This document shows positions 35,023 through 54,046 of a DNA stretch of 64,000 nt, in pieces. The notes beneath the pieces are model-generated. The model searched no databases, was not told the origin of the DNA, and saw only the letters and a program-made list of their open reading frames with translations. Location: the NCBI GenBank assembly GCA_965248755.1, contig OZ252149.1, positions 2,816,001-2,880,000 on the forward strand, written 5' to 3'. The DNA is from Candidatus Latescibacterota bacterium. GTDB lineage: Bacteria > Latescibacterota > CBDEFO01. Each line of letters begins with the position of its first letter. Within the stretch, counting starts at the first letter, position 1. A program made the position numbers and the translations under genes.

Positions 35023-35727
35023 GTGCATGCCAAGTTCTCTGTTAAAGGAAGTGCAATCGTGGTTCTTATCTTGGTAGCTATTCTAACAATGGCAAGCTCT
35101 CAAGATACTTGGGGGCAACTGGCCGAGCCGTCGCCTAAGTTTACTATAGCTCGGTTGAAATACGAGGGCGGAGGGGATTGGTACAACGATCCTGATATAA
35201 TTGGGAATCTCTTGCGATTCATCGGAGAAAATACGAACATCAAAACGGTAAACGATGAGGCGAGGGTCGAGATAGGGGACAAAGAGTTCTTTTCCTATCC
35301 GTTCCTGTTTATGACAGGGCACGGAAATATACTTCTGACACGGGAGGAGGTACCGAGGCTCAGGGAATATCTGGAAAGAGGGGGGTTCTTATATGCGGAC
35401 GATGACTACGGGATGGATGAGTCGTTTCGAAGGGAGATAAAACGTGCACTCCCGGATAAGGAGCTTGTAGAGCTTCCGCCGTCATACGGACTCTTTGACT
35501 GTCACTTCAGCTTTCCGGGGGGACTGCCTAAAATACACGAACATGACGGAAAGCGTCCCCAGGCGTTTGGAATATTTCATGAAGACAGGTTAGTTGTTCT
35601 CTACACTTACGAGACGAACATCAGCGACGGATGGGCGTCTCCTGATGTACACAAAGATTCTGAAGAAAAGCGGAACGCGGCTTTGAAAATGGGAACTAAT
35701 ATAGTAGTATGGGCGCTCACACATTAA
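35023..35727 (+). CDS. DUF4159-domain protein
   Basis: ARLKYEGGGDWY, YPFLFMTGHG, GGFLYADDDYG, PKIHEHD, DGW and ALKMGTNI. Confidence 0.9.
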   Translation: MHAKFSVKGSAIVVLILVAILTMASSQDTWGQLAEPSPKFTIARLKYEGGGDWYNDPDIIGNLLRFIGENTNIKTVNDEARVEIGDKEFFSYPFLFMTGHGNILLTREEVPRLREYLERGGFLYADDDYGMDESFRREIKRALPDKELVELPPSYGLFDCHFSFPGGLPKIHEHDGKRPQAFGIFHEDRLVVLYTYETNISDGWASPDVHKDSEEKRNAALKMGTNIVVWALTH

Positions 35728-35887
35728 AGAAAGTAGATAGTAGACAGGGGCACCGCCTCTCCTCCTTGAGATTGCTTCGGGCGAATGCCCCCGATCGAAT
35801 CTATCGGGCGGAAGCAATCTCGTAGACAGTGTAGTCAAGAAGGAGCAGAGGGAATCCATGTATGCTGTCTACTAATATAGGAGATCC

Positions 35888-36277
35888 ATGATGTCCTTCA
35901 AGCATCTTTTATTCTTTTTCCTTTCTCTTTTGCTTGCGGACAATACACAGGCACAGACTCAGCTCACGTTAGATCGCGATCGGCTTGAAGTCACAGAGGA
36001 ACAGACGGAGTCCCTGGCGAACCGACTTCTGGAACTATCCATAGCGACTCGCCAAAAAGATCTCGATCAGACCGCAGATTTCTTTGCAGATTCATTATCA
36101 GCTACCCCTCTTCCGACTGAACCCGAGGAACTTGTGCATCAAGTCAAGTGGATCCACAAGCACGGCTGGAAGATTCAAAAGGAGGCTTTGAGGTTGTCTT
36201 TGAGCGCTTTTTTGAAGGATTGGGGGGTGTTTTTGAACACTTCTCTGAGATTGATGACGCTCGGTTCAAGGTGGTGA
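35888..36277 (+). CDS. N-terminal segment (signal peptide) of a secreted FG-GAP/ASPIC protein; frameshifts into the next ORF near 36232
   Basis: Signal peptide MMSFKHLLFFFLSLLLADNTQA; the reading frame switches at the GGGGGGTGTTTTTG run. Confidence 0.6.
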   Translation: MMSFKHLLFFFLSLLLADNTQAQTQLTLDRDRLEVTEEQTESLANRLLELSIATRQKDLDQTADFFADSLSATPLPTEPEELVHQVKWIHKHGWKIQKEALRLSLSAFLKDWGVFLNTSLRLMTLGSRW

Positions 36278-37542
36278 AAGCTAAGTTTGACGACAGGGGC
36301 GCTCAGGCCCGCGTCTATTTCTATCTGGTGGGCAGGGACGCTGAGGGCCTAAGAGAGTGGGCAAGGGGATATGCCTCTGTACATGCACAGGCTTCGGAGG
36401 AGGGCAACTGGAAAATCAGCCAGTTCGTACTCGAGAGTCTTGAATCCCTGGTGTCCACCATTGAGCTCTTTTCCGAAGTGGGTGGTCCGGCAGGTGTTGC
36501 GGCCTTCTTCCCGGCCTATGGATCGAGCCAAAACCGGGGTTTCGTCTGGCACGGGGCAGCGGTAGCGGACGTGGACCTGGATGGGTTGATGGACATCTTT
36601 GCGACCGGTATCTTCGAGAACTATCTCTATTTAAACGAGGGCAACGGGCGCTTCCGCGACGCTTCTGCTCAAACGCAGACCAAGATTTTGCCCAAAGCCA
36701 CGACCCCGCTCTTTTTGGATTATGACAACGATGGGGATCAGGACCTGTTCCTCTCCTCGCCACAAAATCAGATGTTGCTTGAAAACCGGCTCATACCGGA
36801 AGGGAAGCTCGAATTTTTCGACGTGTCGTTGCAGTCAGGGATCGGGCTTGTTCCGGCAATAGGGTTCAGCGCCATCGCCGGTGACGTCAATGGGGACGGC
36901 CGTCCGGACATCTACGTTTCGTCTTACAACAGGTACGGCCAGGTGATGCCGAATTCGTGGCATCGCGCCACCAACGGGACTCCAAATCTGTTGTTCATAA
37001 ATAAGGGCAAGGGCGAATTTGTGGAGTCTGCAAAGGAATGGGCTGTAGATGACGGCCGTTGGAGTTACGCCGCTGGATTTGTGGACATAGACGAAGACGG
37101 GGATATGGACATCTACGTTGCCAACGATTTCGGCGAAAATGGTCTCTACTTAAACCAAGGTGATCGCTTTGTCGATGTGGCGGCTTCTTGGGGAGTGCTG
37201 GACCCGGGAAATGGCATGGGGGTCTCTTTCGGTGACTACGACAACGATGGGGACCTGGACCTCCACGTGACCAATATGTCCTCGACGGCGGGAAATCGGA
37301 TTCTCGGGAGACTCTTTCCCAGTGTGAGCCGGGAGATTGGCGTCCTGGGTAAGCTGGCTTCGGGAAACAGCCTCTATGAAAATCTGGGGAACGGCCAGTT
37401 CAAGGACGTTACATCGGCCGTTGGGGGATTTTCATCGGGCTGGGCGTGGGGCGGTGGATTCATCGACTTCGACAACGACGGATGGGAGGACATCTATACC
37501 CCCAACGGGTTCATTTCGGGAAAGTCGATGAAGGACACGTGA
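36148..37542 (+). CDS. FG-GAP/VCBS repeat beta-propeller segment (CRTAC1-like), ending at an in-frame TGA that is probably read through
   Basis: Repeated DxDxDGxxD motifs (DVDLDGLMD, DYDNDGDQD, DVNGDGRPD, DIDEDGDMD, DYDNDGDLD, DFDNDGWED); GMGV and WAWG. Confidence 0.85.
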   Translation: MDPQARLEDSKGGFEVVFERFFEGLGGVFEHFSEIDDARFKVVKAKFDDRGAQARVYFYLVGRDAEGLREWARGYASVHAQASEEGNWKISQFVLESLESLVSTIELFSEVGGPAGVAAFFPAYGSSQNRGFVWHGAAVADVDLDGLMDIFATGIFENYLYLNEGNGRFRDASAQTQTKILPKATTPLFLDYDNDGDQDLFLSSPQNQMLLENRLIPEGKLEFFDVSLQSGIGLVPAIGFSAIAGDVNGDGRPDIYVSSYNRYGQVMPNSWHRATNGTPNLLFINKGKGEFVESAKEWAVDDGRWSYAAGFVDIDEDGDMDIYVANDFGENGLYLNQGDRFVDVAASWGVLDPGNGMGVSFGDYDNDGDLDLHVTNMSSTAGNRILGRLFPSVSREIGVLGKLASGNSLYENLGNGQFKDVTSAVGGFSSGWAWGGGFIDFDNDGWEDIYTPNGFISGKSMKDT

Positions 37543-37577
37543 AGCCTCTTCTGGCGCCACGTGGTGGCGTCTAAGGC
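37540..37577 (+). promoter_or_regulatory. Candidate Sec codon (TGA) and bacterial SECIS-like hairpin
   Basis: TGA, 10 nt, then GGCGCCAC-GTG-GTGGCGTC, with a lower GCCT/AGGC pairing; the apical loop starts with G 19 nt after the UGA. Confidence 0.6.
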
Positions 37578-38661
37578 AGGAGTTGAGCAGGCGGGCAGCG
37601 ACACTTTCACAGAGCGGCAAAACAAATTGTTCGGACAGGGGTTTTCATTCAGCGGCTTCGAGAGAGATGCACTCTACCTCAACCTGGGCAGCAAGAAATA
37701 CTTGAATATCTCCGGCGTCTCAGGCATAGATTCGATCACCGATGGAAGGGGAGCTGTCTTCGCCGATTTCGACAACGATGGCGACACAGACATCTTTTTG
37801 ACCACTATCCAGGGAGAGGCTCACCTGCTCTTTAGAAATAATCTTTCCGAAGATGACTCCTTCATTCGTGTCACCTTGGAGGGCGTAAAGAGCGGGAAAG
37901 ACGCCTTCGGAAGCCTGGTGAGAGTCAAGACCTCCGCCGGCGTCCTCACCAAAGTCAAATCCGGTGGAGCCGCGTACCTCTCCCAGAGCGACCCGCGACT
38001 TACCTTCGGTCTCGGCTCAGATGCTAAAGCCGAGTGGGTCGAGGTTGTGTGGGCTTCAGGCCTGGTGCAGAAATTTGAGAATATCCCACAAGGCTCTTCC
38101 ATGAAGATTACCGAAGGAGATGAGCAGGTGCGATGGGTTGAGGAGAAACGATTCCAGCTGCCCGAGCCTATCAGGCCACAAGAGACCCGCCTGATGTCCT
38201 TGAGGATCAAAAAGGGGGGACAGTTTCCGAATCTTGCGCTGTCTTTATTGGATGGCGAAAGGACTTCCCTGCAAAGTTCTTCGATACTTTTGGATGATCC
38301 CATACCCGGACGAAAATACCTTGTGAATCTGTGGGCAACGTGGTGCCTGCCATGCGCCAAAGAGATGCCGGAGTTGCAGAAACTCTATGCTCGCAACATC
38401 GATAGTCTTGAGATTATGGGTATCAGCCTGGACCACGAACGGGCACAAGACAAGGTCAAGAGCTTTTTGAGCGATCACGGTATCCAATACCCGATCTATC
38501 TAAGCGATAAGAACATAATCGAGCAAATCTATGCCACAGACGAGGTCTTCGTCCCCCTCTCTTTTCTCCTCGACCAGAGCGGCAAAGTAATGGAGATCTT
38601 CTCAGGATGGTCTGAGGAGGTCAGGGAGAGATTGATTGAACAAGTAGACAGCAAACAGTAG
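37561..38661 (+). CDS. FG-GAP + ASPIC/UnbV + TlpA-like thioredoxin segment, in frame with the upstream ORF
   Basis: SFSGFERD, DFDNDGDTD, GAAYLSQSDPRLTFGLG...VVWASG (ASPIC/UnbV), NLWATWCLPC..EMPEL (TlpA). Confidence 0.88.
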   Translation: MVASKAGVEQAGSDTFTERQNKLFGQGFSFSGFERDALYLNLGSKKYLNISGVSGIDSITDGRGAVFADFDNDGDTDIFLTTIQGEAHLLFRNNLSEDDSFIRVTLEGVKSGKDAFGSLVRVKTSAGVLTKVKSGGAAYLSQSDPRLTFGLGSDAKAEWVEVVWASGLVQKFENIPQGSSMKITEGDEQVRWVEEKRFQLPEPIRPQETRLMSLRIKKGGQFPNLALSLLDGERTSLQSSSILLDDPIPGRKYLVNLWATWCLPCAKEMPELQKLYARNIDSLEIMGISLDHERAQDKVKSFLSDHGIQYPIYLSDKNIIEQIYATDEVFVPLSFLLDQSGKVMEIFSGWSEEVRERLIEQVDSKQ

Positions 38662-38750
38662 ACAGGGGCACCCATCTCCGCTCCCTATGTGCTCTTTATT
38701 AGGGGAGATAGGTATGCCCTGTATCCTGTCAATGTTTTGAGGTGTCGGTA

Positions 38751-41700
38751 ATGTCAGACTCGGCGGAAAAGACATATCGGGAGCTTTTGGAGAGGCTCAG
38801 GAGGTTAAGAATCAGGGAGATGAATCTCGGGGTCTCCTTCGGGACAGCTTTGTGTCTTCTGGTTGCCCTTTGTATCGGGTCGCTCTGGATGGCCGTAGAG
38901 ATCTTGTTCTATCTGCATCCAGTGGCAAAGATGCTTATGCTGTCTCTTACTGCCGGGACTGCGGGCTCTGCCTTTGTGTACTTCTCCATCTTCCAAGTCT
39001 TCAGGAAGAAGTCGCCTCAGGACATGGCTCTGAAGGTGGAATCTGTGTTCCCGAAGTTCAAGCAGACCTTGATAGGTGCACTTCAACTCTGGGACAAAAA
39101 GATAGAGAATCCAGAGGGCTATTCAATGGATATGATCGACCGGACTGTGATAAAGGCGGGAGACTTATCAAAGGATGTGGAATTTGAGAGCATCGAAAGT
39201 ACCGCAAAGATATGGAAGACAGTTGCCATCCTATCTGCTATTATAGGTTTCGTCGCCCTCTTTGTAATTCTGTTTCCGTCTCAGTTTAAGGGAGCGCTGT
39301 CCAGGACTTTTCACATCACCACCGCCTTTGCAAAGCCTCCAGAGACGTTTCTGTACGTGGAACCCGGAGATATGGAGGTTGTGAAGGGTGCGGACGCCTC
39401 TATACTCATACAGTTGGAAGGCAGACTTCCCGACCAGATCAGCGTGCTCTCCAAAGAGCCTCTGGCAAAGAGATGGAAAGAGGCAGACGTAGAGATTTCA
39501 ATGGAGGACAGCTTGTTCCAGTTGCAGCTGAAGCTGGGCTTTGTATATGCTTTTAAGGAAGTAAGCCGGACTATCGACTACTATGTCAAAGCCGGCGACG
39601 GAGAGAGTCCTGGTTTTCGAATCAATGTGATCGACCGTCCGATGGTCAACAAGATCACGGCGCAATACGAGTATCCCGCATATACGGGTGTTCCCGCCAA
39701 AGTGACAGAGGGTGGGGATCTATCGGCCCTTATCGGGACTGAAGTTGAGCTTTCTATCTGGGCGAGCAAACCCTTAAGGGGGGCCTTCCTGATCTTGGGA
39801 GATGGAACAAAGATCGAGGCTACCCTGGAAAACAGGACCGCGAGACTGGGCTTCGAGATAAAAAAGGACGACACTTATCACATCCGATTGGTGGATTTGG
39901 AGGGTCTTGATAACTCTGAGCCCATAGAATACAGTATATATGCCCTGAAGGACGAATCGCCCATAGTCAGAGTCGCCTATCCAGGGAGCGATACGGACCT
40001 TGGAGATAATATGTTACAGCCGCTTACAATAGAGGCGTCCGACGACTTCGGGATATCGAAGATGAATATCATCTGGAGACTGAACGAGGATCCGAGGCTA
40101 AGACGTTGGGAAGTACCTCTTCTCTCTGGAGGAAGGAAAGAGGTTAAAGAAGACTATGTGTGGGATCTATCGGCAATGAATCTGCTGCCTGAAGATAGGA
40201 TATACTACCGCGTTGAGGTCTATGACAACGATGAAGTCTCAGGGCCCAAAAGAGCCCAAAGCGAAGAGTTTGTCGTGAGACTTCCCTCTGTCCATGAGAT
40301 ATTGGAGGAGGTCGAAAGGACGCAGGAAGAGCAGACAATGCAGATGGAGGGGATAGCAAAGGAAAGCCGTGCAATCAAGGAGAAGTTAGAGGAGATAAAA
40401 CGTGAGCTTTTGAAGGGTGTGCAGTTAGATTGGGAGGAAAGGAAGGACATCGAGTCTCTTGTGAATAGACAGATGAGAATGGCTGAGGAGATGAACAAGC
40501 TTTCCGAGAAGATGGACGAAGTGACGGAGCAATTAGAAAAGAGCGGGTTGTCTGCGGCGGAGACTCTGCAGAAGATGGCTCAAATAAGGAAGCTTATGTC
40601 GGATGTAGCGACCCCTGAACTAATAGAGGCTATGGAAAATTTGAGGGAGTCTGTGAAAGACCTGGATCAACGGCAGATAGAGCAGGCCATGAAGGATTTT
40701 TCGATTACACAGGAGGAATTTGGCAGGAGGCTCGACCGCACTATCGCTATCTTGAAGAGACTTCAGGTGGAGCAGAAGATAGATGCCGCTATCAAGGCTG
40801 CAGAGGAGCTGACAGAAAGACAGGAAGGCGTAAACAATCAGATCAAAGAAAACAAAAAAGAAGAGTTGGCAAAGGAGGAGGAGGCGATTGCCCAAGATAC
40901 GCGAAAGCTCCAGAAGGACATAGAAGATCTGGCGGATGCCATAAGGGAAATCTCCGAGCAGAGTCAGGTCGCAGGTTTGGCTGATTCGATTTCTAAAGAG
41001 ATGGCAAGGCAGAAAATACCCTCTCATATGCTCCAGATGGCAGAGTCTTTAAGGTCGAGTGATGGCAAATCGGCTGAATTGCAGGGAGAGTGGATAGTTC
41101 AAAACCTGGTGGATCTATCCTTTGGCCTAAGAAAAATGCAGGAGTCCTTTCTGAAAAGCCAGAAAGCCGAGCTTTTCGGCGAGATCAGGAAGTCCATGCG
41201 GGACCTTCTGTATCTATCTTATCGCCAGGAGGACGTGATTGCAGACGGCAAAGATACAAAGATACAACGAGAGCTTGCAGAAGTTCAGCAGTCCCTCTTT
41301 TCGGGGACTTCCAAAATCGCTGACAGGCTCTTTGAAACATCTCAAAAGACGTTCTTCATTACCCCTTCCATAGGAAGAGCTTTAGGAGAGTCTCTGGAAG
41401 GGATGAAAGAGGCCACCTCTCTCCTTGAAAGAGGGAACGGAAAATTGGCGTCGAGCCATCAAAGGAAGGCCATGTCCTCCTTAAATGAGACGGTAAATCT
41501 CCTAAGAGGGGCGATGGGGGACATATCGTCGTCTGAATCGGGAACGGGCTTTCAGGAGATGTTAGAGAAGATGAAGGCTCTGTCGCAACAACAGCAGGGC
41601 GTAAATCAGAGGACAGAGAGCCTGTTCGGTGGGGGACAGATGGGACTTTCTCCAGAGCAGCAAGGAGCCAACAGTGCTACCATGATGGCTCAACTTCTGG

Positions 41701-42122
41701 CGGAGCAGGAGGCTATAAGAAGGGCAATCGAGGGGCTTCAAAGGGCGATGGAGCAGAAAGGGGGTCTCCTGGGAAGACTCGACAAGATGGGCAGGGAGAT
41801 CGAGGAGGTCACCAGGGACCTTGCAAGCGGAAGGATAAGCAGAAGGACTATCGAAAGGCAAAGAGACATACTCTCCAGAATGCTGGACGCCCAAAGGTCG
41901 ATATACGAGAGGAGCTACAGCAGGAAGAGACAATCTAAAGAGGGAAAGGACCCAGATTATCAGGGCTCTGGCAGTCTGCCGGAGGATCTGGGACAGAGGA
42001 GAAATCTTTTGAGAGAATATCTCCTCCAGGCCTTAAAGGAGGGCTATTCTCAAGAGTACATCAATTTAATACGAAAGTATTTTGAGTCACTATCTATAGA
42101 TCAAGTAGACGGCATACAGTAG
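38751..42122 (+). CDS. DUF4175-like large membrane-anchored protein (Ig-like domains + long coiled coil)
   Basis: N-terminal TM helices, YPAYTG, ASDDFGIS, VYDNDEVSGPK, Q/E-rich coiled coil, RQRDILSRMLDA and YFESL C-terminus. Confidence 0.8.
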   Translation: MSDSAEKTYRELLERLRRLRIREMNLGVSFGTALCLLVALCIGSLWMAVEILFYLHPVAKMLMLSLTAGTAGSAFVYFSIFQVFRKKSPQDMALKVESVFPKFKQTLIGALQLWDKKIENPEGYSMDMIDRTVIKAGDLSKDVEFESIESTAKIWKTVAILSAIIGFVALFVILFPSQFKGALSRTFHITTAFAKPPETFLYVEPGDMEVVKGADASILIQLEGRLPDQISVLSKEPLAKRWKEADVEISMEDSLFQLQLKLGFVYAFKEVSRTIDYYVKAGDGESPGFRINVIDRPMVNKITAQYEYPAYTGVPAKVTEGGDLSALIGTEVELSIWASKPLRGAFLILGDGTKIEATLENRTARLGFEIKKDDTYHIRLVDLEGLDNSEPIEYSIYALKDESPIVRVAYPGSDTDLGDNMLQPLTIEASDDFGISKMNIIWRLNEDPRLRRWEVPLLSGGRKEVKEDYVWDLSAMNLLPEDRIYYRVEVYDNDEVSGPKRAQSEEFVVRLPSVHEILEEVERTQEEQTMQMEGIAKESRAIKEKLEEIKRELLKGVQLDWEERKDIESLVNRQMRMAEEMNKLSEKMDEVTEQLEKSGLSAAETLQKMAQIRKLMSDVATPELIEAMENLRESVKDLDQRQIEQAMKDFSITQEEFGRRLDRTIAILKRLQVEQKIDAAIKAAEELTERQEGVNNQIKENKKEELAKEEEAIAQDTRKLQKDIEDLADAIREISEQSQVAGLADSISKEMARQKIPSHMLQMAESLRSSDGKSAELQGEWIVQNLVDLSFGLRKMQESFLKSQKAELFGEIRKSMRDLLYLSYRQEDVIADGKDTKIQRELAEVQQSLFSGTSKIADRLFETSQKTFFITPSIGRALGESLEGMKEATSLLERGNGKLASSHQRKAMSSLNETVNLLRGAMGDISSSESGTGFQEMLEKMKALSQQQQGVNQRTESLFGGGQMGLSPEQQGANSATMMAQLLAEQEAIRRAIEGLQRAMEQKGGLLGRLDKMGREIEEVTRDLASGRISRRTIERQRDILSRMLDAQRSIYERSYSRKRQSKEGKDPDYQGSGSLPEDLGQRRNLLREYLLQALKEGYSQEYINLIRKYFESLSIDQVDGIQ

Positions 42123-42218
42123 ACAGTGTAGCCCCGCCCATCCTCGTATCAAGTTGACAGCATGCAGACAGCGGGAGGATGTCCTACCTACTGACATTTC
42201 TGACGTTTTTCAAGGCGT

Positions 42219-44075
42219 ATGTCCTTTTTCGCTCCCTATTTTATCCCAAGAATTGCAAAGGAAACTGGAAAACATATGCAATCAGATAGCAGACAGCAAA
42301 GAGCAGATAGGTATCGAGAAGGAGCGTTCCCCTGCCTCCGATTGAATCTATCGGGGGTCTGTCTACTGGCTATTGTTTACTGTCTACTGATCTTTATGGG
42401 ATATACCAGCCTTTCCGCTGACTCCGGGGTGGACAGGCTAAACTACGCCATCTCGCTGGAGGCCCGGGGAGATCTCCAAGGGGCTTTATCTATTTATGAG
42501 GAAGGAATCAAAAAAAGGCCCAAAGATATAGGCATCAAAATCAGGCTGGCAAATGTATTATATAAGTTGGGTCGGAGGGAAGACGCTATTAAGGAATGGA
42601 ACGAGATATTGAAGATCGCTCCCGAATCCATACACACCTATTCTATGGTCGCAGAGCAGTACAGAATACGAGGGATGGCAGAGGAGGCGATAGAGGTCTA
42701 CACAAAATTGAGAGAAAAGTTCAATATGGAGAACGAATTTTCACTCCAGGTGGGAGATCTCTGGGCATCTTTGGGAAAGTACGATAGAGCCGTTCAAGAA
42801 TATATAGCCTACCTCGGCGAAGGCTCAAATTCGATGGTCTATCAGATTGTGGAGCTGAAGATATTGAATCTGGCCAGGAATCGTCAGACTGTGGACTCGG
42901 TTATGCCGGTTCTGAAAGAGGCATTGTCTACCCGGCCTGATAACGCCTCTCATCTTCGGCTCTTTGCGGTCTGGTGCGTTGCAGCGGCAAAGGCAAGGGA
43001 AGCTCTTCCCTTTTTGATCTTGAAGGAGGTAAAGGACAAACAGTGGGAGGAGATTATCTACAGGTTCGCATCGGATTGTGAAAGAAATGGCTTCAAAAAA
43101 GAGGCCATGCAGGCCTACAGCGAGCTTGCCAAAGAAGCGCCGAATTCCAAGTACTGGTCACAAGCCGAGCTTGCCGTAGGACGAATTCACGAGGCACTTG
43201 GCCTCTACGGGCAGGCGGCTGTCTCGTACACGGAACTGATAAGGAGGTATCCTCTGACCTATCAAAGCTTTGAGGCGCTCTACAGAGTTAGCGATATGCA
43301 GCTTAATGTAGAAAAAGATGTAGAAGCGGCACTTTCGTCCTTCCATCTCTTATCACAGAAATCCTATGCAGGAGCATGGAAAGAAAAAGCGCTTTTAAAG
43401 GTGGCCGAGTGTCTTATCATTCAGGATAAGATTGAAAGCTCAAAGAAAACTTATCAGCAGATTGAAACCTCGACAAAAGATGCGTCCACCAGGGAAAAGG
43501 CCCTCTTTAAGTTAGCCTATCTTGAGTATCTTTCAGGAAACTTTGAAAGGGCTCTCCAACTTTTGGAGAAGATATCTCTGGATTATCCCGGCGGGGAGAT
43601 GGTCAACGACGCCTTAGAACTGATCGTGCTTATAGAGGAGAACGCAGGAATTGAGGAGGAAAACCTGAAGGCCTTCGCCCGTGCGGAGCTTCTAAGGCTC
43701 CAGTGGAAAGAGGACGGGGCAATTGGAGTCCACCAAAAACTTATTCAGAAACATCCTACATCTAACCTTGCAGACGACGCTTTTTTGATGGTAGGGGACA
43801 TAAAGTCCGATGCAAGAGATTACTTCTCCGCTGTTGAGACTTACAGAAAGCTCTCCCTTGAGTATCCCGAGAGCAGGCTTTCCGAACATGCCCGCGTGAG
43901 GATAGGGCGCATCTTTGAGGAGAAGTTAGACGACATCCAGAGGGCGGCAAGGGAATACGAAATGTTCCTTGTAGATTACCCCGACAGTCTGCTTTCAGAT
44001 GAGGTGAGAATTAGGCTCAGATCGCTAAAGGAGAGGCTGAAGGCTCTGGAGGGGCTTAGAAAGGAGACAGGATAG
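42219..44075 (+). CDS. Exported tetratricopeptide-repeat protein
   Basis: Many TPR units, including repeated YP.S motifs (VNDALEL, LADDAF, FLVDYPDSLL); start uncertain (may be downstream). Confidence 0.85.
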   Translation: MSFFAPYFIPRIAKETGKHMQSDSRQQRADRYREGAFPCLRLNLSGVCLLAIVYCLLIFMGYTSLSADSGVDRLNYAISLEARGDLQGALSIYEEGIKKRPKDIGIKIRLANVLYKLGRREDAIKEWNEILKIAPESIHTYSMVAEQYRIRGMAEEAIEVYTKLREKFNMENEFSLQVGDLWASLGKYDRAVQEYIAYLGEGSNSMVYQIVELKILNLARNRQTVDSVMPVLKEALSTRPDNASHLRLFAVWCVAAAKAREALPFLILKEVKDKQWEEIIYRFASDCERNGFKKEAMQAYSELAKEAPNSKYWSQAELAVGRIHEALGLYGQAAVSYTELIRRYPLTYQSFEALYRVSDMQLNVEKDVEAALSSFHLLSQKSYAGAWKEKALLKVAECLIIQDKIESSKKTYQQIETSTKDASTREKALFKLAYLEYLSGNFERALQLLEKISLDYPGGEMVNDALELIVLIEENAGIEEENLKAFARAELLRLQWKEDGAIGVHQKLIQKHPTSNLADDAFLMVGDIKSDARDYFSAVETYRKLSLEYPESRLSEHARVRIGRIFEEKLDDIQRAAREYEMFLVDYPDSLLSDEVRIRLRSLKERLKALEGLRKETG

Positions 44076-44146
44076 TAGATAAGTAGATAGTAGGTAGGGG
44101 TATATCCTCTTCTCCCTGTCTACTTGTTTGAGATAAAAAATATAGT

Positions 44147-45493
44147 GTGGAAAAGAGGGTATACACCTTGAAAAAAACATCAGAAACACCAGTATCAAGT
44201 AGGCAGTGTCAAGTAGGTAGGGGATACCTCCTCCCTGTCTACTGTCTACTGTCTACTGTCTACTTGTTTATGGCTTCAGAGCTCTGGGCCCAAAAGATGC
44301 TGATATACATGGACCTGAATCAGACTGATCATCTCAAGGCGTATGGCGTCGCGTACCGGGCTTTAGAGCAGGGGATAGATGTGGAGTGGCTGTTGAACTA
44401 CCGGGGAGGATCATTTATGATAGACAGTGCAGATGAGTTGATAGCAGAGGCGAGGATAAGAGGGGTCTCCTTTTCTATGATAGGCGGAGCCGAAGCTGCC
44501 CTTGTATACGCTCAGATAGAAAGGGAGAACATGGACGTAGTGCACCTTACAAAGACTCCCAGAATAGCGGTCTATACTCCTCCCAACACTCAGCCCTGGG
44601 ACGACGCTGTGACCCTGGCTCTCACCTACGCACAGATACCGTACGATAGGGTCTGGGACGCGGAGGTGCTTACTGGAGAGCTTGAGAAATACGACTGGCT
44701 GCACCTGCACCACGAGGATTTTACAGGACAATATGGCAAGTTCTACAGCACGTACGGGAATCAGCCTTGGTACAGACAACAGCAGATCCAATACGAGGCT
44801 GTGGCCCGCCGTCTGGGATTTACTAAGGTCTCCGAGGAAAAAAAGACTGTGGCAGGGGCGATCAAAAATTACGTCATAAATGGAGGTTTCATCTTTGCAA
44901 TGTGCTCGGCGACAGATACCTTTGATATAGCTTTAGCCGCCCAAAATGCCGACATCGCCGTGGCTGTGTTCGACGGCGACCCGGCCGATCCAGACGCCCA
45001 GGAGAAGCTCGACTACTCCAGGACGGTGGCGTTTGAGAACTTCAAAATAGAGATGAATCCTTTAGTATACGAGTTCTCGGATATAGACACCACGCCCAAA
45101 AGGATGTCACAGATACGGGGCGCCGAGGCAGATTATTTCACTCTGTTTGAGTTTTCTGCAAAATACGATCCTGTCCCCACGATGCTGACTCAAAATCACA
45201 CACCTGTTGTGGACGGCTTTCTGGGACAGACTACCGCGTTTAGAAAGTCCCTCATAAAGGATTCTGTCGTGATATTGGGGGAATCTGCAGCAACAGATGA
45301 GGCTAAATATATACACGTAAATGTGGGGAAAGGGACATTTACTTTCTACGGGGGGCACGACCCGGAGGACTATCAGCACCTGGTCTATGATCCGCCCACT
45401 CAGTTGTCCTTGCACAATAATTCTCCCGGATACCGGTTGATCTTAAACAACGTACTCTTCCCGGCAGCCAAGAAGAAGGAGAGGAAGACCTAG
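44147..45493 (+). CDS. Conserved exported protein of unknown function (family often mislabelled 'asparagine synthetase B')
   Basis: QTDHLKAYG, WLLNYRGGSF, QPWDDAVTLALTYA, DWLHLHHEDFTGQYGKF, FAMCSATD, GGHDPEDYQH and SPGYRLILNNVLFPAA; start uncertain. Confidence 0.8.
   Translation: MEKRVYTLKKTSETPVSSRQCQVGRGYLLPVYCLLSTVYLFMASELWAQKMLIYMDLNQTDHLKAYGVAYRALEQGIDVEWLLNYRGGSFMIDSADELIAEARIRGVSFSMIGGAEAALVYAQIERENMDVVHLTKTPRIAVYTPPNTQPWDDAVTLALTYAQIPYDRVWDAEVLTGELEKYDWLHLHHEDFTGQYGKFYSTYGNQPWYRQQQIQYEAVARRLGFTKVSEEKKTVAGAIKNYVINGGFIFAMCSATDTFDIALAAQNADIAVAVFDGDPADPDAQEKLDYSRTVAFENFKIEMNPLVYEFSDIDTTPKRMSQIRGAEADYFTLFEFSAKYDPVPTMLTQNHTPVVDGFLGQTTAFRKSLIKDSVVILGESAATDEAKYIHVNVGKGTFTFYGGHDPEDYQHLVYDPPTQLSLHNNSPGYRLILNNVLFPAAKKKERKT
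44237..44264. repeat. Heptamer tandem repeat (CTACTGT/ACAGTAG family)
   Basis: tgtctactgtctactgtctactgtctac; related units at about 34040-34095, 38640-38665, 42100-42130, 42360-42390 and 44073-44097. Confidence 0.75.
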
Positions 45494-45515
45494 CGCTTTT
45501 TAAGTGGATAGAATA

Positions 45516-45663
45516 GAGATTGCTTCGCAGACCCTTCGCTTCGCTCTGGGCTTCCCCGATACATTCAATCGGGGACTCGCAATGACGTTGAAGTGTGCTC
45601 GTAACGATATTGCTTAGCTTCGTCCTTTGGTCATTGCGAGGGCCAAAGTCTCGAAGCAATCTC
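45516..45663. repeat. Inverted pair of REP-like GAGATTGCTTCG...CTCGCAATGAC elements with CCCCGAT palindrome
   Basis: GAGATTGCTTCG...CCCCGATACATTCAATCGGGG.CTCGCAATGAC, then GTCATTGCGAG...CGAAGCAATCTC. Confidence 0.8.
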
Positions 45664-45704
45664 CCCGTTTACTGACTGCTGTCTACTTTGAAAGGAAGGA
45701 GTCG

Positions 45705-46709
45705 ATGCAGGAAATTAGGGAAAGTCACGACTTAGAGGCTATCGAAAGATTGGAAGAGGCAAAGGACGCAATCTGTTCTGAGATCGAAAAGGTGATCGTT
45801 GGACAAAGGCAGATAATAGATCAATTGCTGATTGCTCTTTTTTCAGGCGGGCATTGCCTCATCATCGGCGTGCCCGGCCTTGCCAAGACACTGCTTATAA
45901 ATACGCTTTCTGAGATTCTGGATCTTTCGTTTAGCAGGATACAGTTCACGCCAGATATTATGCCGTCCGATATTACGGGGACGGAGGTGATTGAGGAGGA
46001 TCTGTCCCTGGGGAAAAAGACCTTCCGATTCGTAAAGGGACCTGTCTTTGCAAATGTGATATTAGCAGACGAGATAAACAGGGCGCCTCCCAAGACTCAG
46101 TCGGCTCTTCTGGAGGCTATGCAGGAGCACAAGGTTACGGCTTCGGGAAAGACAATGAAACTTTCCGAGCCGTTCTTTGTGCTTGCCACTCAAAACCCTA
46201 TAGAGCAGGAGGGCACCTATCCACTGCCCGAGGCTCAGCTGGACAGGTTCTTCTTCAGCCTCTGGATAGACTATCCTACCTTTGAGGAAGAAGAACAGGT
46301 AGTTCACAGGACCACGAGCGCATACACCTGGAATGTAAGGAAGGTAGTGAGCGGAGATGACATTATAGACATGCAAAATCTAATAAGGAGGGTTCCAGTT
46401 TCAGATCATGTGGTCAGATACGCTGTGGATTTGGTCAGAAAGACGCGACCATTTGAAAAAGACGCTCCGCCTTACGTTAAGGACATGATCAGTTGGGGGG
46501 CAGGTCCAAGGGCGTCTCAGTATCTCATACTGGGAGCAAAGGCAAAGGCTGCTCTGAACGGACGATGTTCTGTGTCCATCGAGGATGTCAAATCCATTGT
46601 GGTGCCTGTACTAAGACACAGGATAATCACCAACTTCAACGCCGAAGCAGAAGGCGTTGATACAAAAGGGATAGTAACCAGACTGTTGGAGGAGGTCCCC
46701 GATAAATAG
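45705..46709 (+). CDS. MoxR-family AAA+ ATPase
   Basis: GVPGLAKT, RIQFTPD, DEINRAPPKTQSALLEAMQE, ATQNPIEQEGTYPLPEAQLDRF and WGAGPRA; AAGGAG RBS before ATG 45705. Confidence 0.95.
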   Translation: MQEIRESHDLEAIERLEEAKDAICSEIEKVIVGQRQIIDQLLIALFSGGHCLIIGVPGLAKTLLINTLSEILDLSFSRIQFTPDIMPSDITGTEVIEEDLSLGKKTFRFVKGPVFANVILADEINRAPPKTQSALLEAMQEHKVTASGKTMKLSEPFFVLATQNPIEQEGTYPLPEAQLDRFFFSLWIDYPTFEEEEQVVHRTTSAYTWNVRKVVSGDDIIDMQNLIRRVPVSDHVVRYAVDLVRKTRPFEKDAPPYVKDMISWGAGPRASQYLILGAKAKAALNGRCSVSIEDVKSIVVPVLRHRIITNFNAEAEGVDTKGIVTRLLEEVPDK

Positions 46710-46719
46710 AAAGGTCTAT

Positions 46720-47601
46720 TTGGATTATCTGGACCCCGAGGTCGTATCCAGGCTCAGAAGTCTCGACCTTGTGGCGCGGCTGGTCGTGGAGGGATTCATA
46801 ACTGGACTTCATAAGAGCCCGTATCACGGTTTTTCGGTGGAGTTTGCCGAACACAGACAGTATATGCCGGGCGATCCTGTGAGGGACATAGACTGGAGGG
46901 CTTACGGAAAGACGGGACGCCTTTACGTAAAGAAATACGAGGAGGAGACGAACCTAAAGGCGTATATCCTTCTGGACGCAAGCGGTTCTATGGAGTTTAC
47001 CTCAGGGGGCATAACCAAGTTTAAGTACGGATGCTATCTTGCGGCCTCTTTAAGTTATCTTATGCTCAAGCAGAGGGACGCTGTGGGATTGTGCATCTTT
47101 GACAGTCGAATACGCCGCTATGTGCCTCCGCGATCTGTCGGGAGCCATCTTCACACCATACTTAAAGAGATTGACGGCGCAAAAACGGCTCATGAGACGG
47201 ATCTGGCAGGTACTCTCCACACCCTGGCTGAGAGGATAAAAAGGAGAGGCCTAGTGATAGTGATCTCCGATCTTTTGGACGATCCATCTAAGGTGTTGTC
47301 AGGATTTAAGCACTTCCGCCACAGAAAGCACGAACTGGTAATATTCCACATCCTGGACCCCAAGGAACGGGATCTGTCGTTTCCCAGGGAAGCCAGATTC
47401 GTGGATCTTGAAGGCGAAGAACAGCTAGTTACTGAGCCGTGGCACATTCAGAAGGACTACACTTCTTTGATGGACGACCTTGTGAATCGCTATCGCAGGG
47501 AATGCCGCGAAAGTCTCATAGATTATGTCCTGATAAATACGTCAGACAGGTTCGACACCGCGCTTCTGGGATATTTATCCAAAAGGAAAAGGTTAGGGTG
47601 A
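46720..47601 (+). CDS. DUF58-domain protein (MoxR partner)
   Basis: GLHKSPYHGFSVEFAEHRQYMPGD, IDW, EEETN, DASGSM and ISD. Confidence 0.93.
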   Translation: MDYLDPEVVSRLRSLDLVARLVVEGFITGLHKSPYHGFSVEFAEHRQYMPGDPVRDIDWRAYGKTGRLYVKKYEEETNLKAYILLDASGSMEFTSGGITKFKYGCYLAASLSYLMLKQRDAVGLCIFDSRIRRYVPPRSVGSHLHTILKEIDGAKTAHETDLAGTLHTLAERIKRRGLVIVISDLLDDPSKVLSGFKHFRHRKHELVIFHILDPKERDLSFPREARFVDLEGEEQLVTEPWHIQKDYTSLMDDLVNRYRRECRESLIDYVLINTSDRFDTALLGYLSKRKRLG

Positions 47602-52735: not shown

Positions 52736-54046
52736 ATGGAGGAAAAGCCATTAATCAACCTTGTCTTCGCCGGCCATCTGGATGGCGGAAAATCGACTCT
52801 GGTCGGGAGAATGCTCTACGAACTCGGTCGCTTACCAGAGCAGACGATCTCCAGGTTAAGAAGACACGCTAAGGCGGCTGGAAAAGAGACATTTTTCTAC
52901 GCCTTCAACTCAGACCGAAGTCTCGAGGAACGTGAAAGAGGCATAAGCATAGAAGCACACTTTGATGACTTTGAGACGGAGCAGAGAAGGTTCAATATCA
53001 TCGACGCTCCCGGGCACCAAGACTTTGTAAAGAATATGATCATGGGGGCGGCAAAGGCAGATGTCGGGGTCTTGGTACTGGATGCTCAAGAGACCTCTCA
53101 AGAAGAGCTACAGCCTCAGACGAGGGAGCATCTTATTCTGCTCCACTCCCTCGGAGTCGAAAAGCTTATTGTAGTCGCTAATAAAATGGATCTGGTGGAC
53201 TACTCCAGGGAGATCTATGAATCCTTAAAGATCAAAATAGAAGATTTTCTCAAGCAAGTCCTGTGTAAGTTCCAGGATGAGGTTGTATATGTTCCTGCCT
53301 CAGCATACTGTGGAGAAAACGTCATTGAATCATCCGATAGGTTGCTGTGGTATTCTGGCCCTACGTTTCTGGAGGCTCTGGAAGGCATAGAACAGCCTCA
53401 CAGACTTGTGGATGCGCCTCTTCGAATGCCGATTGTCAGGACGTTCAACGTCCAGTTTGGCGCTACGGCCACCGGAAAGATAGAGACGGGAAGAGTTCGA
53501 CCGGGTGATACGGTCGTAATCGTTCCGTATCCTGGAATAGGTTCTATAACGGGACGTGTCAGTTCGATAAAATGTAAGGATGAAGATAAAAAGGAGGCAA
53601 CTGCCGGAGATGATGTCGGTCTCCTCTTGGAACAGTTAGAGCAGGGGTTCGTAATACGGAAGATTAAAAAGGGATTTATGCTTGCCGGCCCTGAGCATCC
53701 TCCGGTCGAGGCAGAAAGGTTCAAGGCCCGGATTGTAGTGTTAGACCATCCGTCCGAAATCAGAGCTGGTTATACGCCGTACCTGCATTGCCATCAAGCG
53801 TCCCTCCCATGCCGAATTACAGAAATTGAAGATGTACGGGACTCAAAGAGTAACGAGCCAAAAGAGTCGAATAGTGGAAGTCTTGTAAATGGCGATACGG
53901 CAACAGTGTGGATCGAACCTCAAAAGCCTCTCGTAATAGAAAAGGCACAGGATTTTCCTCGGTTAGGGAGATTTGCATTACGAGACGGAAGAACTATAGG
54001 AAGCGGCACGTGCCTAGAGATTGTCCCAAAAGAAAATAGACAGTAG
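52736..54046 (+). CDS. Translational GTPase most similar in motifs to archaeal/eukaryotic EF-1alpha (divergent paralogue)
   Basis: INLVFAGHLDGGKSTLVGRMLY, ERERGISI, DAPGHQDFVKNMIMGA, QTREH, NKMD, PASAYCGENV, HPSEIRAGYTP and FPRLGRFALRD; three domains, 436 aa. Confidence 0.88.
   Translation: MEEKPLINLVFAGHLDGGKSTLVGRMLYELGRLPEQTISRLRRHAKAAGKETFFYAFNSDRSLEERERGISIEAHFDDFETEQRRFNIIDAPGHQDFVKNMIMGAAKADVGVLVLDAQETSQEELQPQTREHLILLHSLGVEKLIVVANKMDLVDYSREIYESLKIKIEDFLKQVLCKFQDEVVYVPASAYCGENVIESSDRLLWYSGPTFLEALEGIEQPHRLVDAPLRMPIVRTFNVQFGATATGKIETGRVRPGDTVVIVPYPGIGSITGRVSSIKCKDEDKKEATAGDDVGLLLEQLEQGFVIRKIKKGFMLAGPEHPPVEAERFKARIVVLDHPSEIRAGYTPYLHCHQASLPCRITEIEDVRDSKSNEPKESNSGSLVNGDTATVWIEPQKPLVIEKAQDFPRLGRFALRDGRTIGSGTCLEIVPKENRQ

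Follow-up and report, generated by a model that had tools for sequence, protein, structure and literature searches.

Is a TGA codon in the middle of a propeller gene a stop, or is it read as selenocysteine (Sec)? The question is raised by a locus in a 64,000-nucleotide stretch of DNA from a Candidatus Latescibacterota bacterium (the window, meaning that whole stretch: positions 2,816,001 to 2,880,000 of contig OZ252149.1, assembly GCA_965248755.1). Here, a gene for an FG-GAP/ASPIC-UnbV protein is interrupted at 37540–37542 on the plus strand, in the context ..MKDT-U-SLFWRHVV.., where U stands for Sec. An earlier reading of the letters by a model, made without database searches and called the sequence-only reading below, had proposed that an open reading frame (ORF) from 36148 to 37542 ends at this TGA and continues behind it, and that a hairpin directs the insertion of Sec into a secreted propeller fused to a CxxC thioredoxin domain. 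The frame does end at the TGA and is then free of stops for approximately 370 codons, up to a TAG at 38659–38661. The central proposal is supported: the TGA very probably encodes Sec, and the best explanation of the locus, which is very likely correct, is one exported selenoprotein of 924 amino acids with SelB-directed insertion of Sec at residue 552 by means of a selenocysteine insertion sequence (SECIS). None of the results that had been named in advance as grounds for abandoning the proposal appeared, these being a genome without Sec machinery, homologues with TAA, TAG or unrelated residues and no hairpin, or a sequencing error.

Conservation of the codon was followed in the best 80 of 318 genome loci and the best 80 of 301 metagenome loci. 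At the Sec column, the codon is TGA in 79/80 genome loci and TCG in the remaining one (1/80), and it is never TAA or TAG. In the metagenomes, it is TGA in all of the motif-bearing loci (68/68); the other 12 of the 80 are more distant and were left out of the codon count. When 131 evenly drawn Acidobacteriota genomes were searched, the gene was found in 15, each with one TGA. The homologues carry both the TGA and, as explained below, the same hairpin. In 76 loci, the frame past the TGA stays open for 363–402 codons; in 3 others, the contig ends first. In the public databases, 75 of the 120 homologues listed stop exactly at the Sec column (...DT). The residues directly after the TGA are conserved while their codons vary: among 92 distinct sequences, Ser is encoded by AGC, AGT or TCG, Arg by CGT, CGC or CGG, and Val by GTC, GTT or GTG. 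These same residues are found in the uninterrupted Cys homologues P0002, P0006 and P0007. One locus (L074, from genome G055) and one further genome (G113) are unpublished; because of them, the counts for TGA, for selB and for the background are each higher by one. L074 is also one row of the protein alignment, and no conclusion rests on either.

The hairpin follows immediately. As had been claimed, GGCGCCAC-GUG-GUGGCGUC occupies 37553–37571, 10 nt past the UGA, with G as the first loop base. The lower stem that had been drawn for it, GCCU/AGGC, did not hold up, as it differs from the minimum-energy lower stem and no lower stem is conserved in the homologues. What can be defined as the SECIS is the upper stem-loop (37554–37570, plus strand), which starts 11 nt after the UGA and consists of 6 bp (37554–37559 with 37565–37570) and a 5-nt loop carrying G-U at 37561–37562. 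This 11-nt spacer and 17-nt upper stem-loop are presumably like those of Escherichia coli fdhF. The likeness to the bacterial SECIS (bSECIS) lies in a loop of 3–9 nt that opens with G and then U, 17–18 nt from the UGA, and in a stem of 6–8 bp. In PMC13188914, the bSECIS consensus is given as a loop of 3–9 nt, a stem of 4–16 bp, a G in the first two loop positions, a distance of 16–37 nt from the UGA and an energy of −7.5 kcal/mol or lower; the hairpin agrees with this consensus in every respect, and its energy is −12 kcal/mol.

Stability alone is no evidence for a SECIS, because shuffled sequences fold equally well: the 61 nt from the UGA give a z of 0.05, and 97/200 shuffles are as good. Instead, the evidence is provided by conservation and covariation. 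All six pairs are formed in 74/79 TGA loci and the loop G-U is present in 79/79, in contrast to the TCG form, which retains only 2 pairs. In an alignment of 35 sequences, one from the window and 34 hand-picked for diversity among the 80 loci, 96.7% of the cells are paired, relative to 90.7 ± 0.7% in shuffled controls and 19–70% in slid controls. One stem pair occurs in three forms (C-G 19, U-A 13, G-U 3). Consistent with pairing, the wobble base of the Arg codon varies together with the opening base of the codon four places further on (CGT-Thr 51, CGC-Ala 36, CGG-Ser 4, CGT-Met 1), and as the paired 3' base is the first base of that codon, the amino acid swaps along with the Arg codon. The chance rate in the genome was estimated from the 1055 TGA-ended frames of at least 200 amino acids, 34 of which have a loose SECIS-like hairpin and 2 the exact geometry. 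Separately, a short palindromic repeat of the CCCCGAT...ATCGGGG type is scattered genome-wide and produces false SECIS-like matches (G000:C1:239916, 2609, 623700, 1923739, 2535784, 4438300 and 4536137).

The machinery for Sec insertion, which the sequence-only reading had suggested looking for, is present in the genome: selA, selB, selD and tRNA-Sec (selC) were all found above their family cut-offs. In addition, the genome encodes other proteins with an in-frame TGA, namely a CUAEP-tail radical SAM selenoprotein (NF040546, over cut-off), a UshA-like PCGU selenoprotein (NF041198, over cut-off), SelD itself and a UxxC-bearing frame without NCBIfam match, which may be of the DUF3179 kind. These genes lie at G000:C1:2659847 (−), 1695149 (−), 4363037 (+) and 3726182 (+) (loci L153–L155 and L011), and those for the UshA-like and CUAEP selenoproteins have hairpins at a spacing similar to that of the propeller gene. 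Two further TGA frames in the genome (L156 and L157) were considered as selenoproteins and set aside, having no family match and looking like chance. Of the 63 TGA genomes in which the machinery was searched for, 49 derive from 50 of the 80 loci and 14 from the phylum sample. In 59 of them, selB was found; the other four all have selA and three have tRNA-Sec, and the missing selB is presumably due to assembly gaps. From machinery, codon and hairpin, each of which was observed, we infer the insertion itself.

The extent of the gene needed correction. The start at 36148 given by the sequence-only reading is not the true one: one C was dropped after 36237, which makes that ORF start artefactual and places the N-terminus upstream, split off as an ORF at 35888–36277. 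In a same-genus genome, also Candidatus Latescibacterota, the corresponding locus (L053) is 96.8% identical in DNA over the gene with a single gap, the extra C after 36237, and it forms a single 924-aa frame containing one TGA. The extra C is also present at full depth in contigs from 3 of 4 public runs (X1, X3 and X8; X12 has no coverage there). X1 and X3 share a sample, from which the assembly itself may have been made, whereas X8 belongs to another study. Judged on these sequences, the base missing at 36237–36238 is an assembly error, the real start is ATG 35888 or 35891 behind the Shine-Dalgarno-like AGGAG at 35879–35883 (4 and 7 nt before the two ATGs, respectively), and 36148 is an artefact. 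By comparison with L053, the whole gene spans 35888–38661 on the plus strand, with the UGA read as Sec and the frameshift corrected. As this start provides a signal-peptide-like N-terminus (35888–35953; a basic start, hydrophobic core and small-residue cleavage-type site, judged by eye from the translation), the earlier description of the protein as secreted now has a basis. Further frameshifts may exist in the assembly of the window.

Behind the signal sequence, four domains follow on the plus strand. An N-terminal alpha/beta domain of no named family (35954–36468) shows helices and long strands in the model described below and is kept in both Sec and non-Sec homologues; it has no Pfam match, and its look-alikes in the Atlas are unnamed hypothetical clusters. 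This is followed by a CRTAC1-like, calcium-blade FG-GAP beta-propeller that encloses the TGA (36469–37842; six stretches matching Pfam FG-GAP_3), an ASPIC/UnbV domain (37903–38097; PF07593, E 8.9e-15, residues 586–650 of the read-through product), and a TlpA/ResA-type thioredoxin domain (38215–38613; Redoxin and AhpC-TSA, read-through residues 690–822, with fold matches), which contains the CxxC motif WATWCLPC at 38344–38355. The Pfam matches on the read-through product confirm that FG-GAP repeats flank the TGA on both sides and that ASPIC/UnbV comes after them, and it is only if the UGA is read through that these stand in one chain. As NCBIfam cut-offs for whole proteins were missed (ResA 68.9 against 170, TlpA 63.2 against 230), the C-terminal part is only a TlpA-like domain. 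Atlas searches returned FG-GAP clusters and unnamed clusters only.

An AlphaFold2 model of the sister protein minus its signal peptide, built on a 93-sequence alignment, predicts these four domains in a fixed arrangement, as it is confident (predicted local distance difference test 94.6, predicted TM score 0.93). Its best match is murine CRTAC1 (9etn; sequence E 3.4e-50, fold E 4.6e-27, TM 0.73 by target), and ResA/TlpA proteins rank next in both sequence and fold matches. Like proteins of the FG-GAP plus ASPIC-UnbV type (NCBI "CRTAC1 family protein"), the chain has DxDxDG calcium blades and then ASPIC/UnbV, but it is only 21% identical to CRTAC1 and has an extra N-terminal domain, Sec-bearing and other helical inserts, and the C-terminal TlpA domain. 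The latter shares the WATWCxxC motif and fold of the TlpA/ResA/StoA oxidoreductases, which are membrane-anchored and stand alone, whereas here the domain is fused behind a propeller. Calcium binding is predicted from the DxDxDG loop motifs, as described for calcium-blade propellers in PMC3123361. In the model, Sec is the first residue of a helix (526–537, model numbering) that is inserted between the strand following a calcium loop and the next strand of one blade. Loops of the Sec face, including the corresponding loops of other blades (YN..G..P.SW..ATNG, RWSYAA, NDFGE, NMSSTAG.RIL, GWAWGG and DGR), hardly vary among Sec forms and are less constrained in the non-Sec homologues. From the topology of FG-GAP/integrin propellers, we take this to be the ligand-binding face.

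Could the locus be explained without Sec? Were the TGA a true stop, translation would have to restart at the GTG at 37564, eight codons later, to produce two genes. That triplet is GTG in 90 of the 92 distinct sequences, with no synonymous change, and TTG in L097 and L104, both being possible start codons, and gene callers do annotate the locus in this way (75 truncated entries). However, the T and G of the GTG belong to the 3' arm of the hairpin, so that pairing alone accounts for the constraint. Two genes are, in addition, very improbable given that the intervening seven codons are conserved at the amino acid level while codon usage varies, with both serine boxes represented, that the stop is never exchanged for TAA or TAG, that the break falls inside a blade and leaves the second piece without an export signal, and that the uninterrupted homologues are one chain. 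The downstream ORF also has no Shine-Dalgarno sequence at a usable spacing, in line with the earlier remark that it lacks an obvious ribosome-binding site. Selenium-free decoding of the TGA, in which a near-cognate Trp or Cys tRNA reads through it or short and long forms are made in a regulated switch, would accommodate the Cys and other residues tolerated at the column in some homologues as well as the four TGA genomes without a selB match. The spacing and loop of the hairpin are nevertheless those of a SECIS, selB or selA is present in all 63 TGA genomes searched, Trp stands at the column in no uninterrupted homologue, and TGA is the ordinary stop of many other genes in this genome; we regard such read-through as highly unlikely. 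The assembly frameshift found in this very gene might suggest a sequencing error or a recent nonsense mutation, that is, a pseudogene. The public contigs that correct the frameshift, however, match the TGA (0 other letters in the X1 records), as do the sister genome and >150 loci from several phyla; this brings the probability of such an explanation close to zero. On one side, the X1 contigs concerned each extend <31 bases beyond the TGA. The TGA is spanned by one X8 contig, with no change at this codon among the rows listed.

The remaining alternative concerns what Sec does, and not its presence. In the mechanism that we propose, SelB would bind the hairpin that directly follows the UGA on its 3' side and deliver Sec-tRNA, and the ribosome would read through. 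The exported chain would fold into the predicted succession of N-terminal alpha/beta domain, calcium-blade propeller, ASPIC/UnbV and TlpA-type domain, and Sec, in a propeller pocket, would serve as a redox-active nucleophile. This Sec would react with an extracytoplasmic substrate, which may be a disulfide, a peroxide or an oxidised sulfur group on a bound glycan, peptide or protein, and would then be re-reduced by the fused CxxC domain, itself possibly fed by a DsbD/CcdA-type membrane carrier as are other TlpA/ResA proteins. The CxxC is present in 78/79 TGA genome loci (the remaining one is cut by a contig end), in 15/15 carriers of the Acidobacteriota sample and in 57/68 metagenome loci (10 are cut short and 1 is closed early), and it is kept in 4/33 homologues with neither Sec nor Cys and in 1/3 Cys forms. 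As the CxxC nearly always accompanies the TGA and is mostly gone when Sec or Cys is absent, Sec and the thioredoxin domain would appear to work together, and we give a Sec–CxxC redox relay slightly better than even chances. Alternatively, Sec could be inserted but serve as a metal or metalloid ligand or as a sensing residue in the pocket, while the TlpA domain acts on other substrates or keeps Sec reduced during export. This would suit a Sec that has no local Cys partner, homologues that have Ser, Arg, Asp, Thr or other residues at the column and are still built on the same scaffold, and a sister subfamily with Asp in the same insert (L224–L227, L233). It also fits the related propellers in the fold search, which are lectins, integrins and lyases that bind rather than reduce. 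Against it stand the near-universal CxxC domain of the TGA forms, usually lost along with Sec or Cys, and the consensus of the Sec forms, which shows no conspicuous conserved cluster of His or Cys close to Sec. We consider a ligand or sensor role possible but not probable.

Several observations weigh against the picture of an exported selenoprotein with a redox relay, and these are best considered together. Sec insertion, very probable as it is, is read from sequence, and the RNA consists of one metatranscriptome of small share, as short contigs mostly from relatives. The covarying pair represents few independent events, and 472/500 shuffles also give one double-changed pair. The SelB wing domain was not found in the four TGA genomes that lack a selB match. 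In the background, selB is present in 103/131 Acidobacteriota, and because it is this common, its co-occurrence with the gene is consistent with Sec insertion and not decisive. Genome G079 has selB, yet its single copy of the gene (L111) is the Ser form (TCG), without hairpin and without TlpA domain. One metagenome locus (L159) has the TGA and full hairpin, and its frame closes after 139 codons, which is either an assembly error or decay. Cys homologues aligned to the UGA would support Sec, and they are thin on the ground: Cys stands at the column in 3/36 uninterrupted homologues (37 rows minus one that is aligned to another blade), where Ser, Arg and Asp are commoner, and 2 of these 3 lack the thioredoxin domain. 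This rarity of Cys orthologues is a departure from the textbook selenoprotein family. Within the protein, Sec has no Cys beside it (no CxxU or UxxC), and its predicted position on the propeller face opposite the calcium loops comes from secondary structure together with the topology assumed above. Finally, across 80 loci and the window, no neighbouring gene is common to the different phyla, and the neighbourhood gives no clue to the substrate.

How does the exported, Sec-containing propeller compare with known systems? It shares with SelB/SECIS recoding (bSECIS consensus in PMC13188914; archetype E. coli fdhF) the in-frame UGA, the hairpin within the ORF and selABCD. It differs from known SECIS hosts in being an exported propeller, and not a molybdoenzyme or a thioredoxin-fold active site, and its hairpin visibly constrains the protein (the Thr/Ala/Ser swap with the Arg codon). 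The catalogued Redoxin UxxC, UGC-containing TlpA and ResA-like WAxxUGC (NF041054) selenoproteins likewise combine Sec with a TlpA/Redoxin-type fold. In these, however, Sec lies in the thioredoxin motif, whereas here that motif is a plain CxxC and Sec is 268 residues upstream in the propeller; the score against NF041054 was 24 bits for a cut-off of 300.

The sequence-only reading had also stated that this is not one of the classical selenoprotein families, which agrees with the catalogues. In PMC13188914, the 2026 table of 119 families has no entry for FG-GAP, CRTAC1, ASPIC, VCBS or a propeller, although this table is not exhaustive, being without the CUAEP family of NCBIfam. The family lacks a model of its own in NCBIfam of June 2026, and none of the models there was matched above its cut-off. 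Terms for the family were not found in the main text or genome-list supplement of BSepDB (PMC13326102), whose database entries lay outside the search, in the text and four supplements of deep-Sep (PMC12013277), or in the preprint of Haft and Gwadz. Full-text literature searches found no description of the family, and a literature search found no report of Sec in the CRTAC1 family. Within the lists compared, the family is uncatalogued as a selenoprotein; the recoding mechanism is known and the scaffold is new for Sec.

The carriers are mostly Acidobacteriota, plus one Planctomycetota, one Aminicenantes and one Latescibacterota sister. Of 40 relatives searched in the phylum of the window, only one, the same-genus genome, yielded an orthologue. 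The gene is present as one copy in each of 5 genomes checked, and of the 39 frames with at least three DxDxDG motifs in the window's own genome, only this gene has a TGA in the conserved blade context. A second search for uninterrupted forms added only 4 as long as the family. In none of these was there a CxxC or a Cys at the column, and one could not be aligned by pattern. In a quick tree with many open forks, the non-Sec forms fall into several separate groups, often on long branches, and a Ser group that has no TlpA domain branches from within the Sec forms. A distant subfamily (L224–L227, L229, L230 and L233) has the same blade insert (..FFWRQ) with Asp or Glu at the Sec column and could serve as an outgroup in tracing how the Sec site arose.

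Most catalogued prokaryotic selenoproteins have Sec in a thioredoxin-type or metal-binding motif, whereas here it is in a secreted propeller with no local Cys. The rarity of Cys orthologues may explain why searches for Cys/Sec pairs missed the family, and public databases store the protein cut in two. With the gene in approximately 1 in 9 Acidobacteriota genomes (15/131) and in some Planctomycetota and Latescibacterota, the reading, if true, adds a major selenium-using protein for abundant soil and sediment bacteria. It also singles out one residue and one pocket in the FG-GAP/ASPIC-UnbV family, the biochemistry of which is largely uncharted. More tentatively, and with somewhat less than even confidence, this could be the first selenoenzyme with Sec in an integrin/CRTAC1-type propeller. 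It would be exported, act as a redox enzyme and contain its own thioredoxin relay, and its Sec would mark the active face of the FG-GAP/ASPIC-UnbV family, including animal CRTAC1.

Recurring clusters of neighbours were considered as a clue to function and rejected, being mostly shadow frames or neighbours within a single lineage. In the window, the gene lies within a same-strand run (35023–47601) of DUF4159, DUF4175, TPR, MoxR AAA ATPase and DUF58/VWA genes, a context that recurs in fewer than four of the other loci. A DUF6851/vanadium-haloperoxidase-like gene is found nearby on the same strand in eight Pyrinomonadaceae-type loci (L056:6337-8037 and 7 others) and is directly downstream in L056 and L062, while in L084 a TPR + FG-GAP + ASPIC gene is downstream. 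Elsewhere in the window, 52736–54046 encodes a translation-factor-type GTPase with a GTP-eEF1A C-terminal-like domain, situated between a histidyl-tRNA synthetase-like gene and hisG/hisD.

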